From NCBI GenBank assembly GCA_021162685.1, contig JAGGYF010000038.1, positions 1-35,981 of the forward strand: a DNA stretch of 35,981 nt, in the 5' to 3' direction. The translations under genes were made by a program, and so were the position numbers. The stretch is from Candidatus Iainarchaeum sp. GTDB lineage: Archaea > B1Sed10-29 > WALL01. The notes beneath the pieces are model-generated. The model did not search any database. It was not told the DNA's origin and saw nothing but the letters and a program-made list of their open reading frames with translations. Shown piece after piece: positions 3,112-6,891 of the stretch (the first letter of the stretch is position 1; each line of letters begins with the position of its first letter).

Positions 3112-4008
3112 CTAGTCACCCCATATTCTATTCTCAAGCACCTGTTTTTTATCAAAATTTTCAAGCTTCAGATAGTAATCAGCGCAATCAATTAATGCAT
3201 CCATTGGGACCAAACCTATAATCTCACTTCCTATTACTTTAACGCCGTACCTGTTTGCCTCTCTTTCTATCATATCAAATACTCTATATATCGGACTTTT
3301 CTTATAATTCACAAGATTCATAGAGACCTGGGTAATCCCTCTATCCTTTAGCTCAAATCCCAATGCCTTGACATATCTCAATCCACCGGAGATATGCCTG
3401 ACCGCTTTTGCTATCTTCTTTGCAATCTCAACATTGGGTGTATCTAGATTAACATTAAATGCTATTAAAAATTCTCTTGCACCAACTGCTGTTGCACCTG
3501 CTTTACCCATCTTACTAGGACCAAAGTCGGGCTTTCTGTCCGGATTTGTTTCTATCTCCTTCTTCAATCCTTCATATTCTCCTTTTCTAACATCAGCCAA
3601 GTTTTTTCTATCTGGCCGCGTTGCAGCATATTCATAAAGATAAACAGGTATGCCCAACTCTTCGCCAATCCTTTTTCCCAGGCTTCTTGCAAGCTCAACA
3701 CATTCATCCATAGTCATATTCTTTATCGGTACAAATGGGATAACGTCTGTTGCACCCATTCGCTTATGCTCTCCTTTATGTTTATCCATATCTATAAGCT
3801 CTGCTGCCTTCCTACATGCTCTAAATGCCGCTTCTTTGGCAGGTTCTGGCTCTCCTATGAATGTAACAACTGCTCTGTTATGGTCTGGGTCCATACTATA
3901 ATCCAATAATTTCACTCCCTCAACACTTCTGATCTCATCAACAATTGCTTCAACAACTTCTTTCCTCCTTCCCTCACTGAAGTTAGGTACACATTCAACA
4001 AGTTTCAT
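3112..4008 (-). CDS. ftcD: Glutamate formiminotransferase
   Basis: MKLVECVPNFSEGR, DHNRAV, HKRMGATDVIPFVP, QVSMNL; start set at ATG 4008 after GAGGTG RBS. Confidence 0.94.
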   Translation of the reverse strand: MKLVECVPNFSEGRRKEVVEAIVDEIRSVEGVKLLDYSMDPDHNRAVVTFIGEPEPAKEAAFRACRKAAELIDMDKHKGEHKRMGATDVIPFVPIKNMTMDECVELARSLGKRIGEELGIPVYLYEYAATRPDRKNLADVRKGEYEGLKKEIETNPDRKPDFGPSKMGKAGATAVGAREFLIAFNVNLDTPNVEIAKKIAKAVRHISGGLRYVKALGFELKDRGITQVSMNLVNYKKSPIYRVFDMIEREANRYGVKVIGSEIIGLVPMDALIDCADYYLKLENFDKKQVLENRIWGD

Positions 4009-4085
4009 GAGAACACCTCGCAGTGAAAAATAAACATTCAACATTTTTAATTTTTCCTGTAAAATTGCTCAAAAAACAGAAAAGC

Positions 4086-4092
4086 TTATAAA
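4086..4092 (+). promoter_or_regulatory. TATA box (TTATAAA) for the basic-protein operon
   Basis: TTATAAA preceded by purine-rich GAAAAG BRE-like sequence, upstream of the GGGGGTG RBS. Confidence 0.6.
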
Positions 4093-4135
4093 TGAAAACA
4101 CTTTAATTGCAATTGTAACAATGGGGGTGTTCATT

Positions 4136-4270
4136 TTGGCAACAAGGAGAAGAACAACAAAAAAGAAAACAACAAGGAAGAAAAAAACAACGAAGAGGAA
4201 GACAACAAGAAAGAAGAAAACAACTAAGAAGAGGACAACAACAAGGAAGCGTAGAACACGAAGAAGATGA
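4136..4270 (+). CDS. 44-aa protamine-like Lys/Arg/Thr protein (not in ORF track)
   Basis: GGGGGTG RBS then TTG GCA; MATRRRTTKKKTTRKKKTTKRKTTRKKKTTKKRTTTRKRRTRRR; in-frame ATG at 4121 is an alternative start. Confidence 0.78.
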   Translation: MATRRRTTKKKTTRKKKTTKRKTTRKKKTTKKRTTTRKRRTRRR

Positions 4271-4303
4271 ATATTAAATAAAAAAACATATGGAGGTGTG
4301 TGT

Positions 4304-4522
4304 TTGGCATCTAAGGTTACACTGTCTTTGACAACAAAGGAGGCTACAACGCTCAAGCGCATCATAAAGAAGATTAAGACAAAGAAGAAGGCAAGGAAGA
4401 GAGCAACAAAGAAGAGAAAGGCAAAGAAGAAGGCAAAGAGAAAGGTTAAGAGGAAAGCGAGGAGAAAGAAAACAAAGAAGAAAAAGGCAAAGAAGAAGAA
4501 AAGAAGAACAAGGAGAAGATAA
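4304..4522 (+). CDS. 72-aa histone H1/protamine-like Lys/Arg-rich protein
   Basis: GGAGGTG RBS then TTG GCA; short N-terminal segment followed by a K/R/A tail ending KRRTRRR. Confidence 0.82.
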   Translation: MASKVTLSLTTKEATTLKRIIKKIKTKKKARKRATKKRKAKKKAKRKVKRKARRKKTKKKKAKKKKRRTRRR

Positions 4523-4523
4523 G

Positions 4524-4547
4524 CCTCCCTCCTTCTTATTTTATTTT
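4524..4547 (+). terminator. Pyrimidine/oligo-T terminator
   Basis: CCTCCCTCCTTCTTATTTTATTTT directly after the stop codon. Confidence 0.5.
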
Positions 4548-4605
4548 CGTTCCCCGCTCAGTAATGTTTATATATCCTATTCTCCTTTTTACCAACGGTG
4601 GTCCC

Positions 4606-6891
4606 ATGAAACGAATTATCGCATTAATCTTGCTATTATCTCTCTCATTAGCAGTTGCCCCAACCGTTCAAAACATTACGCTCTCAGATGATCCAGATAC
4701 ATTAAATGATGAAATCTTCGCAACATACTACTTCAACGATACAGACAACAACAAAGAAAACGGAACAACGTTCCAATGGTACAAAAACGGAGCAGCAATC
4801 TCAGGAGCAAGTGGCCATGTGTTCTGGGGAGATAATTTTGATAATGACACCACAGGAAATGCGCCTGCGAACTGGAGCACATATCAGGCACAAACTGGAA
4901 ATATAAAGGTTAATGATACTATATATTATGGTTCAACTGGGAAAAGCACGAGGGTTTCTGCTCATGAAGATGGGCTGCAACAAAAAAATGATGTCGCGAT
5001 ATATAAATCATTACCAACAATAGCAGCTGGTTATCTTGAAGTGTATATACGTATGCCTGACACAACAACAAACAAATATTTCATGATAGAGGAAGGAGGA
5101 CTTGCCACAGCGCAGAATATCGTTATACATTTCTCAGATTCGGGGTATATTCTCTATTATGATGATTCCGGAAACCCTCAGGTTATTACATCATATCAGG
5201 CGAACCAATGGTACCACATAAAGATAAAATGGGATAACTCAACAAACTTGGAGAGCATCTGGATAGATAATCAGCTCTTGGCAGAAAACGTGACCCAATG
5301 TGCTGCATTCACAAATGGCCCTGATACAATCAGTTTTTGGGCAATGCGGGACCCCAGCGACGCCGAATTTTTTATTGACAATGTCAGGGTTTACAATGGT
5401 TCGTTATCATTACAAAAACCAGCATTTGTGAAAAATGACCAAATAGTACTTGAAGTAACACCAAAGGATGATGCAGGCGAAACAGGAACAGCCACAAACT
5501 CATCAGCGTTCACGGCTCTGAACAGCCCACCACAGATAACTACAGCACAGAATTTCACAGCCAATCAAACAACACTAACATGGGACCATTCAGAGAGAGA
5601 TTTAGATAGCGACAGCATATCAAATGTAACTGTGACATTTTTAACATCAACAAAGCAGCAGGTTACACTCCTGGACGATCATGCAAACAGCGACTATTTT
5701 ACTCCTAATGATTATGCCTCCTACAATTATTATTCGTACTCATGTTATCCAAGGACGTGTTATGCCTATGTGATTTACACTCATAACAACCTCTACATAT
5801 CAGGAAGCCCATGTGATTCCGCAACTTCTTGGGCACAGTCTTTTGATTTTGGCCTTCAGACAAGAGCATGTATTGCCATAGGACCTGATTACACACAGCG
5901 CTGGGACCTTACAGACATACGGAAGAGTACATCTAACATCAAATACTACCGCAAATTTTCCTCATCTTCAACATCCTCTACATCTTACAGTGGCGTCCCC
6001 AACACAATTGACATCTCCTCCCTCACAGCAGGGGCAAATTTCATGAATATAACAGTATCAGACGGCATCAACTCAAAAATGTACCCATACATCTTCTTCA
6101 AACCACTATATGCAGACTACACAGGTCTAAATACATCCCTTTCAACAAATGTAACATCTTACACAGCAGACTATCAGCTTGAAAACATCAACTTAGTCTT
6201 AGATGACGGTGTAGAAGGAAACATCTCATGGAGTTCAGTAAACCTTACCAATTATTCATCTGTGCCATTTGGTTCTGCAGTAACCATCCAAAACAGAAGC
6301 ATCTCTGTTGACACCTCTACAATTCCTGAGCTGAACACATCAGCAACAATAACATTCAAAGACACAGCGCTAACAAACCTAAGCAAAGTTGTGATATGGA
6401 AACGCTCTGGAACAACAAACACAACATGTTATTACAACGGAGCAATAGTTTCAGGCAACCCATGTGGCATAGGAACTCCAACGTTCTCAGACGGAGTAGA
6501 TGACATCCAATTCACAGTACCTGGATTCTCATCCTGGAACGTTGGCCCTGACAGCGACTCAGATGGCTATTCAGATGATGCAGAGAACTCATGGGGAACA
6601 GACCCAAATGATCCAAATGACCCTGGACCATACTCTTCAGATGCTGATAATGACCTCCTAACAAACGAACAGGAAGCAAACATCGGTACAAATCCAAATG
6701 ACGCAGACACAGATGATGATGGATTTGTAGATGGAGAAGAAGTAAATATATACAACACAGACCCTACAGATTCATCTGACTATCCTGCGATCCAATCCAG
6801 CCCAATACAAGTAGCACCGGCATTTGATATACTGGGAGTAGCAGTATTAGTTTTAGGAGGCATAGCAATCTTCTTTATGGTGCAGAGATAG
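4606..6891 (+). CDS. Cell-surface glycoprotein/adhesin: Ig-like domains, lectin/LamG-like module, Asp-rich Ca-binding (TSP3-like) repeats, C-terminal anchor
   Basis: Signal peptide MKRIIALILLLSLSLAVA; many N-x-S/T sequons; DSDSDGYSD, DADNDLLTN, DTDDDGFVDG; PAF + TM + R C-terminus; TTTATATA at 4567. Confidence 0.8.
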   Translation: MKRIIALILLLSLSLAVAPTVQNITLSDDPDTLNDEIFATYYFNDTDNNKENGTTFQWYKNGAAISGASGHVFWGDNFDNDTTGNAPANWSTYQAQTGNIKVNDTIYYGSTGKSTRVSAHEDGLQQKNDVAIYKSLPTIAAGYLEVYIRMPDTTTNKYFMIEEGGLATAQNIVIHFSDSGYILYYDDSGNPQVITSYQANQWYHIKIKWDNSTNLESIWIDNQLLAENVTQCAAFTNGPDTISFWAMRDPSDAEFFIDNVRVYNGSLSLQKPAFVKNDQIVLEVTPKDDAGETGTATNSSAFTALNSPPQITTAQNFTANQTTLTWDHSERDLDSDSISNVTVTFLTSTKQQVTLLDDHANSDYFTPNDYASYNYYSYSCYPRTCYAYVIYTHNNLYISGSPCDSATSWAQSFDFGLQTRACIAIGPDYTQRWDLTDIRKSTSNIKYYRKFSSSSTSSTSYSGVPNTIDISSLTAGANFMNITVSDGINSKMYPYIFFKPLYADYTGLNTSLSTNVTSYTADYQLENINLVLDDGVEGNISWSSVNLTNYSSVPFGSAVTIQNRSISVDTSTIPELNTSATITFKDTALTNLSKVVIWKRSGTTNTTCYYNGAIVSGNPCGIGTPTFSDGVDDIQFTVPGFSSWNVGPDSDSDGYSDDAENSWGTDPNDPNDPGPYSSDADNDLLTNEQEANIGTNPNDADTDDDGFVDGEEVNIYNTDPTDSSDYPAIQSSPIQVAPAFDILGVAVLVLGGIAIFFMVQR

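Follow-up and report, generated by a model that had tools for sequence, protein, structure and literature searches.

The window examined here, a stretch of 35,981 nucleotides (nt) of DNA from Candidatus Iainarchaeum sp., is contig C33 of an archaeal genome of 1.11 Mb (45 contigs, 98% complete, 39.6% G+C), and it contains two small adjacent frames, gene 1 and gene 2, which specify proteins extremely rich in lysine and arginine (K/R). Gene 1 (4136-4270, forward strand) opens with TTG GCA at 4136-4141 and encodes 44 residues: 15 T, 14 K, 13 R, one M and one A, with no acidic residue, which amounts to 61% K/R and a net charge of +27. Its layout is simple: M-A is followed by five TT-(K/R)3-4 units, the protein starts MATRRR and ends KRRTRRR, and the DNA is a tandem repeat with a unit of 33 nt (11 codons), 82% matches and zero indels. 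Gene 2 (4304-4522, same strand) also opens with TTG GCA (4304-4309) and encodes 72 residues, for a net charge of about +42; they include 30 K, 13 R, 9 T and 8 A, and Glu, present once, is the only acidic one. Here residues 1-17 form a short mixed segment, and a K/R/A/T tail, in which A, V or T are used singly between K/R, runs on to the same KRRTRRR end.

The signals around the pair lie on the forward strand as well. A Shine-Dalgarno-like (SD) motif, GGGGGTG (4123-4129), is found 6 nt ahead of the gene 1 start, and the SD motif of gene 2, GGAGGTG (4292-4298), 5 nt ahead of its start. The genes are separated by an A-rich spacer of 33 nt (4271-4303, the upstream part being 4271-4291) that has no T-run, which is consistent with their co-transcription. 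The TATA-like box TTATAAAT (4086-4093), preceded by a purine-rich BRE-like AGAAAAG, lies 50 nt ahead of the gene 1 start codon and is the putative promoter of the pair; its position falls inside the broad zone, from -65 to -45, in which SD-led open reading frames (ORFs) of the same genome show a mild excess of TATA-like hexamers, in a distance profile that is noisy from the crude gene set, and a TATA box is plausible at most. Beyond gene 2, the T-rich tract TTCTTATTTTATTTTCGTT (4533-4551), with TTTATTTT at 4539-4547, is a putative archaeal terminator of the oligo-T type. The original prediction for this locus had listed a TATA box of the pair's own, two ribosome-binding sites each followed by TTG-GCA, a terminator, a gene 1 of 44 residues (27 K/R, 15 T, M and A in TT-(K/R)3-4 units), and a gene 2 composed of a short N-terminal segment and a K/R/A tail; all of these are present in the sequence, and the composition counts agree.

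Are these frames genes? The shared heptapeptide is written AAG CGT AGA ACA CGA AGA AGA in gene 1 and AAA AGA AGA ACA AGG AGA AGA in gene 2, and the five nucleotide differences are all synonymous. Identical last seven residues were reached in just 24 of 200,000 shuffles of both basic parts. The claim of one KRRTRRR end in different synonymous codons holds. With regard to translation signals, SD matches of at least 6 nt precede 75 of 879 crude long-ORF starts of this genome and peak sharply between -12 and -8, whereas only 22 of 5000 positions picked at random have one. The motif GG[AG]GGTG is present in 128 copies on both strands, only 21 of which precede an ORF of at least 40 codons at 3-9 nt; genes 1 and 2 provide two of these 21 sites, 168 nt apart. 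Both are among the most K/R-dense frames genome-wide: in the best 25-residue window gene 2 has 20 K/R, which ranks first among the frames of the genome, and gene 1 has 17. The tandem-repeat periods at the locus (15, 18, 33, 12, 24 and 30 nt) are multiples of three, the lone exception being 26. Arginine is encoded by AGR as well as CGN codons, and the share of AAG among lysine codons is 87% in gene 2 and 64% in gene 1 compared with 46% genome-wide, a preference over AAA that keeps A-runs short. The anatomy of the locus is gene-like; genes 1 and 2 are in all likelihood real, and we infer that they are translated.

A gene for a structural RNA was also considered. No Rfam family matches over the stretch (the best E, 0.71, belongs to a plant miRNA), and the predicted RNA folding is weaker than that of shuffles (z = +1.34), with no excess structure; both results speak against it.

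Judged by their sequences, both proteins are very probably intrinsically disordered, fold-less and extremely basic. Neither has a signal peptide or a hydrophobic segment. For gene 2, AlphaFold2 run on the single sequence gives one long helix (residues 11-71, pLDDT 94) and no tertiary fold; K/A/R-rich sequences usually yield such a helix, and it is no evidence of a stable fold. Neither protein matches a Pfam or NCBIfam family (Pfam-A hmmscan, E up to 10), and the models for the histone fold, Alba and MC1 (PF00808, PF01918 and PF05854) give no match either. The genome has its own histones (two histone-fold proteins) and one Alba, encoded elsewhere. The pair is, as had been proposed, unlike the canonical archaeal chromatin families.

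If known families do not contain these proteins, do other genomes encode anything similar? Because HMMER is defeated by composition bias, a codon pattern was searched instead: ACN ACN ARR ARR ARR (N0-3) ACN ACN ARR, i.e., TT-(K/R)3-4-TT-(K/R), with the reversed pattern as control. The phylum comprises 31 species genomes of one DPANN class, and 17 of these contain the pattern, with 62 matches against two for the control; seven matches are in the window's own genome. The majority fall in stand-alone ORFs of 38-100 residues, which have an N-terminus of the form M-(V/A/P)-(T/V/A)-K/R..., comparable to the MATRRR of gene 1, and a body of TT/TV/TA-(K/R)3-4 units. Outside the window's own genome, 12 of the phylum's 30 genomes have a stand-alone ORF of the TT-(K/R)n type (in one case joined to an HhH domain, in two others broken by N), and two of ten outgroup archaeal genomes match as well, both of 0.8 Mb and both with stand-alone ORFs. 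The genomes of the relatives compared are all small, from 0.3 to 1.3 Mb. The suggestion that Thr pairs serve as phospho-switches finds no support; in these look-alikes the spacer may equally be Thr, Ala, Val or Ser.

The look-alikes have gene signals of their own. Among 30 stand-alone ORFs from other genomes, an SD match of at least 5 nt accompanies 16, a T-run of at least 4 lies within 40 nt of the stop in 21, and 23 have four K/R at the end; ATG is the start in 27, a count helped by start picking that favoured a nearby ATG. The Arg share in these 30 is 0.36 in the last six residues and 0.20 in the body. A class can be drawn up on this basis, with at most 120 residues, at least 50% K/R, K/R runs of 2-5 separated by 1-3 T/V/A/S, and a start and SD of its own. 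Gene 1 has all the features of the stand-alone (TT-(K/R)3-4)n class, gene 2 has its composition, and the all-K/R, Arg-enriched C-terminal end that is a trait of the class appears in both (RRTRRR). By composition, then, gene 1 is a member of a widespread, unnamed class of stand-alone (TT/TV/TA-(K/R)3-4)n mini-proteins, and gene 2 is a lineage-specific K/R/A variant with the arginine-rich C-terminus of gene 1.

The class reaches well beyond these relatives. A codon scan of 185,579 species genomes with TTKKKTTKKKTT returned at least 120 matches, so that the range of the module is much wider than this phylum. Among the matches listed, stand-alone ORFs occur in records labelled Micrarchaeota, Woesearchaeota, Iainarchaeum, Thermoplasmata, Patescibacteria and Omnitrophota, and ORFs cut by a contig end in records labelled Aenigmatarchaeota, Altiarchaeales and Dependentiae. 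The idea that such proteins are unique to this organism must be given up, given the mini-ORFs in the phylum and in many other lineages. In one family (L021 of G011 and L024 of G007) reading of the TT-K ORF can begin at an ATG further upstream, which adds a similar N-terminal part of 50-60 residues (MK.L....YY..KKK..FS...), possibly a conserved domain before the tail.

These proteins have little visibility in the databases. The public collection of 15 billion proteins was queried by exact look-up, which needs an identical start and would be escaped by differently started calls. None of four start variants of the pair and none of 13 stand-alone ORFs from other genomes was in it; the only looked-up protein present was the K/A-tailed MC1 of one relative (G018). 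In the ESM Atlas, look-alikes of 39-50 residues sit in unnamed clusters, so the type is already deposited as "hypothetical protein". Searches of open-access literature turned up no account of stand-alone protamine-like or lysine-rich mini-proteins in archaea.

The same module is also found as a tail or linker on larger proteins, and this is where a function begins to suggest itself. A third mini-ORF of the genome (C1:23105-23221 of G000, forward strand) encodes 38 residues, MPARKKKKTT..., from a GTG start with the SD GGAGGTG 6 nt upstream; tRNA-Gly and tRNA-Phe genes come before it, and a hairpin follows its stop. Three kb away, on the opposite strand, the genome's own TFE (PF02002; C1:20266-20874, reverse strand) has a repeat tail ending ...KKKKKTTKKKAKKKTTKKKKTTKKKARRKGKK, and an identical run of about 44 nt is common to this tail and the mini-ORF. 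With the tail on TFE, a bona fide protein uses the K/T frame, and the shared run suggests that the free and the fused form have recently exchanged sequence. The mini-ORF has its closest look-alike in G004, and the two loci have no neighbour in common.

In relatives, the module is borne by TFB, by a Toprim (DnaG-like) protein and by an HhH_5-like domain. The HhH_5 fusion (L019:1324-1812 of G002, forward strand; also P0005) has an N-terminal TT-(K/R)n repeat of ~90 residues (~35 in P0005) and is 71% identical over the domain in the two organisms; it is not found in the window's own genome. The MC1 of G018 (L159:1213-1599, forward strand; PF05854, E 9e-31) carries a K/A tail of 40 residues that finishes in KRRRR; its end, ...KKAKKKAKRRRR, resembles the Arg-rich C-termini of the pair. 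A Pfam scan covered 47 larger module-bearing ORFs, namely 45 of 52 among the matches listed plus L159 and L054, the seven others having been dropped beforehand because they looked like a membrane protein or like GC-rich DNA translated in the wrong frame. Topoisomerase I-type domains, the main bearers of the module across Bacteria, were the commonest fusion context among the matches listed (15 of the 47); TFE, TFB, the Toprim/DnaG-like protein and MC1 contributed one each, eight partners were ribosome-linked (trigger factor 4, S2 3, S3 1), four were secreted glycosidase or CBM contexts, and the rest were HSP90 (2), PPDK (1), DUF1801 (1) and ORFs with no domain (12). Genes 1 and 2 are, as far as their make-up tells, the free-standing form of the basic repeat tail borne by TFE, TFB, HhH and topoisomerase I (MC1 having a K/A-rich one).

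Two further settings of basic stretches deserve mention. TT-KKK inter-domain linkers occur in secreted bacterial glycosidases (GH5/CBM2, GH25; L074, L094, L106 and L124), where a nucleic-acid role is unlikely. A short basic (K/T or K/R) N-terminal cytoplasmic tail stands right before the transmembrane helix in two membrane proteins, L020 (G005) and the product of G000:C30:14784-15986 (forward strand).

What might such proteins do? Charge is their only evident property, the partners of the module in the phylum handle DNA, and there is the precedent of Streptomyces TopA, whose Lys repeats, according to one report, bind DNA and stabilize the enzyme-DNA complex (PMC5714199); on these grounds the proteins are read as DNA counter-ions. 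A role in nucleic-acid binding is plausible in view of the proteins to which the module is fused. The reading that we favor, and to which we give about an even chance, is that genes 1 and 2 are real, probably co-transcribed genes for free polycations similar to protamines or to the tail of linker histone H1, with DNA as their main partner. They would bind electrostatically along the phosphate backbone of nucleic acid, independently of sequence, and chromosomal DNA would be the most likely target. Binding would neutralize charge, and the DNA might be bridged or compacted beside the histones and Alba, in a way comparable to the action of the C-terminal domain of linker histone H1, of chlamydial Hc2 or of protamines. 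The original prediction of an uncharacterized nucleoid system survives in part: the pair very probably consists of real genes for basic, fold-less proteins, DNA condensation and a tie to dormancy are conjectural parts of it, and the notion of a conserved two-gene system does not stand, no orthologue of gene 2 having been found.

Several points weigh against the polycation reading. Phmmer- and hmmsearch-type searches found no homologue of either gene. Gene 1 retrieved itself alone from its own genome, and gene 2 has no homologue in 40 relatives, in a word-indexed set of 5.8 billion or in an exhaustive phmmer search of 1.84 billion, and no orthologue was found for it in relatives. Because no homologue is found, the class is defined by composition and may be convergent, not one family; low complexity defeats phmmer-type searches, and convergence of the stand-alone ORFs has to be kept in mind. 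The K/A pattern matched in 7 of the 31 genomes of the phylum, compared with two control matches, and of the K/A-pattern ORFs examined two are tails on larger recognizable proteins and the rest short or unidentified frames. Synteny of the small genes is not conserved, and their contexts are unrelated. The neighborhoods of FTCD, the gene divergent from the pair, contain no K/R-rich small ORF in the three relatives possessing FTCD, which speaks against a conserved two-gene system. Both genes start with TTG, and gene 1 is open in another frame as well. Purine-rich repeats can expand by slippage, and ORFs that are young and neutral are therefore conceivable. No public RNA run is listed as containing 3300-5300. 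The genome already has histones and Alba. Finally, 8 of the 47 scanned ORFs carry the module on a ribosome-linked protein and 4 of the 47 as a linker in secreted glycosidases, which means that DNA is not its sole context. One more candidate, gene 2 as a degenerate HhH domain, was tried and rejected, BLASTP against the G002 fusion giving an E of only 0.26.

With these points in mind, which other explanations should be considered? The ribosome-linked partners make RNA, or the ribosome, the main rival partner. The proteins would then be real and act as polycationic "glue" peptides, like tiny basic ribosomal proteins or extensions, stabilizing rRNA in a cell with a reduced genome. Tails of this type on S2, S3 and trigger factor speak for it, the organism's own ribosomal proteins have K-rich tails, and high expression would fit the strong SD motifs and the codon bias towards AAG. 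However, DNA-linked partners outnumber ribosome-linked ones by 19 to 8 among the 47 scanned ORFs, and within the phylum the partners are TFE, TFB, MC1, HhH and the Toprim protein. The genes lie outside ribosomal operons, and their copy number, length and sequence vary far more among relatives than those of ribosomal proteins do. We regard this alternative as unlikely, though serious enough to be kept in view.

Less likely again, and on the whole improbable, is that there are no functional genes here: a purine-rich, slippage-prone stretch would be open by chance and would either be untranslated or give peptides with no selected role. Several of the points just listed fit this explanation, i.e., the lack of a homologue by sequence search and of synteny, the partly open alternative frames and the tandem repeats, the absence of both ORFs from the public protein collection and of any listed RNA run. 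It would, however, have to account for two 7-nt SD matches at correct spacing so close together, out of 21 such sites genome-wide, for a promoter-like box and a T-tract on the flanks of the pair, and for the same heptapeptide reached in different codons. Repeat periods in multiples of three, and the recurrence elsewhere of like ORFs with start codon, SD and T-run, speak against it too.

Oligo-Arg/Lys peptides are able to cross or damage membranes. An episymbiotic DPANN cell might accordingly export genes 1 and 2 as antimicrobial or cell-penetrating polycations for use on its host or competitors, and a large surface protein is encoded next downstream; in addition, one preprint makes the case that aberrant condensation is how positively charged repeat peptides kill (10.1101/2023.03.09.531820). 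We consider this very unlikely: no signal peptide or hydrophobic segment is present in either protein, no transporter or immunity gene was found adjacent, and the module is fused to cytoplasmic DNA-binding proteins. A scaffold for polyphosphate granules, modelled on AlgP of Pseudomonas, a lysine-rich H1-like protein that one article ties to the spacing of such granules (PMC9239181), is harder still to believe, as PPK1 (PF02503) was not found in the 98%-complete genome and PPK2 not above cut-off, in searches whose controls matched 7 and 8 of 14 genomes. Least credible of all, the true gene would be the antisense ORF at 4069-4365 (reverse strand, 98 residues, a Phe/Val/Leu-rich hydrophobic peptide): it is the longest ORF over the stretch, but its ATG has no SD and a pyrimidine-rich upstream region, it crosses the spacer and both SD sites, it is absent from the public protein collection, and in every fusion to a known domain the K/T frame is the one used for the module. 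This antisense ORF mirrors the K/T repeats, and a gene caller might take it for a membrane protein.

The surroundings of the pair can be described briefly. The window has archaeal gene content (FtsZ, FEN1, a CTP-dependent riboflavin kinase and an archaeal phosphopantothenate synthetase). Upstream lies the FTCD-N gene, 3112-4044 on the reverse strand as the longest ORF; its start is most likely at 4008 (MKLVECVPNFSEGR, GAGGTG 5 nt upstream) rather than at the ATG at 4044, and with this start 127 bp separate it from gene 1. The next gene downstream (4564-6891, forward strand) encodes a surface-type protein of 775 residues, rich in Asn, Thr and Ser, whose C-terminal part has calcium-binding repeats of the bacterial TSP3 type and a hydrophobic anchor, and the box TTTATATA at about 4567 belongs to this gene. 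The public DNA runs that contain the locus are hydrothermal-vent metagenomes. Independently assembled contigs from them tile 3969-4657 without any difference; these runs are probably the source samples, and the tiling backs the assembly only. No variants appear in the DNA contigs over the locus, and the partial low-identity pieces there are other purine-rich sequences.

Why does this matter? Surveys of archaeal chromatin count histones, Alba, MC1 and Cren7 from annotation and homology, neither of which picks up the gene pair or its look-alikes, at least a dozen in the phylum. Should the peptides be made, very small archaeal cells would hold free polycations of the H1-tail or protamine type beside their histones, and estimates of chromatin composition and charge balance for cells with ~1-Mb genomes would have to be revised. 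They would also provide a simple, synthesizable model of basic tails, in which the module can be compared in its free form and fused to TFE, TFB, HhH or topoisomerase I. If they are not made, the locus is a useful warning about SD-flanked low-complexity ORFs. A wider generalization can be offered tentatively, and we rate it clearly below the reading of the locus itself: DPANN archaea, and perhaps other small-genome prokaryotes, might routinely make free protamine- or H1-tail-like peptides as an abundant, unannotated component of chromatin or of charge balance, which would evolve by repeat expansion, trade sequence with transcription-factor and topoisomerase tails, and be missed by homology searches and chromatin censuses.

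It remains to place the pair among known systems. Hc1, Hc2 and AlgP are lysine-rich H1-like bacterial proteins of a known kind, and with Hc2 and Hc1 (HC2, PF07382) genes 1 and 2 share an extremely Lys/Arg-rich, low-complexity make-up, a small or repeat-built form and the lack of a globular fold; by analogy, their expected action would be electrostatic DNA binding and compaction. The nearest Pfam-bearing cluster of the ESM Atlas has HC2 on 42% of its members, at a score of 0.84, below the 0.9 lead level, and neither gene matches PF07382 itself (Pfam-A, E up to 10), so that they do not belong to that family. The repeat unit of chlamydial Hc2 consists of Ala/Lys/Pro-rich pentamers. Genes 1 and 2, by contrast, are archaeal, are built on the TT-(K/R)3-4 unit and are much shorter (44 and 72 residues), and we know of no developmental cycle in their host, in contrast to the organisms of Hc1 and Hc2.

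The likeness to the H1 C-terminal domain and to protamines is one of disordered polycations with a net charge density above 0.55 per residue: the Arg cluster that ends both genes recalls protamines, and the Lys-rich repeats recall H1. The H1 C-terminal domain turns helical on DNA, and the long helix modelled for gene 2 is reminiscent of this behavior. There are differences too: a winged-helix globular domain, S/TPKK motifs, Cys and any Pfam match are all lacking in genes 1 and 2. They are not linker histones of the H1/H5 type, as gene 1 has no non-basic segment past M-A and gene 2 is mixed only over residues 1-17. Nothing points to a replacement of histones, and the genome retains two histone genes. 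The Streptomyces TopA tail is likewise a K-rich repeat spaced by small residues; there it anchors an enzyme and here it is a free protein, and, with no enzyme attached, tethering of the TopA type is impossible. There are also the basic tails of archaeal MC1, TFE and TFB, which come from the same phylum and are the same kind of tail, and from which genes 1 and 2 differ in having no folded domain at all. Lysine-rich H1-like proteins and Lys-repeat tails are already known, and genes 1 and 2 are a variant of them.

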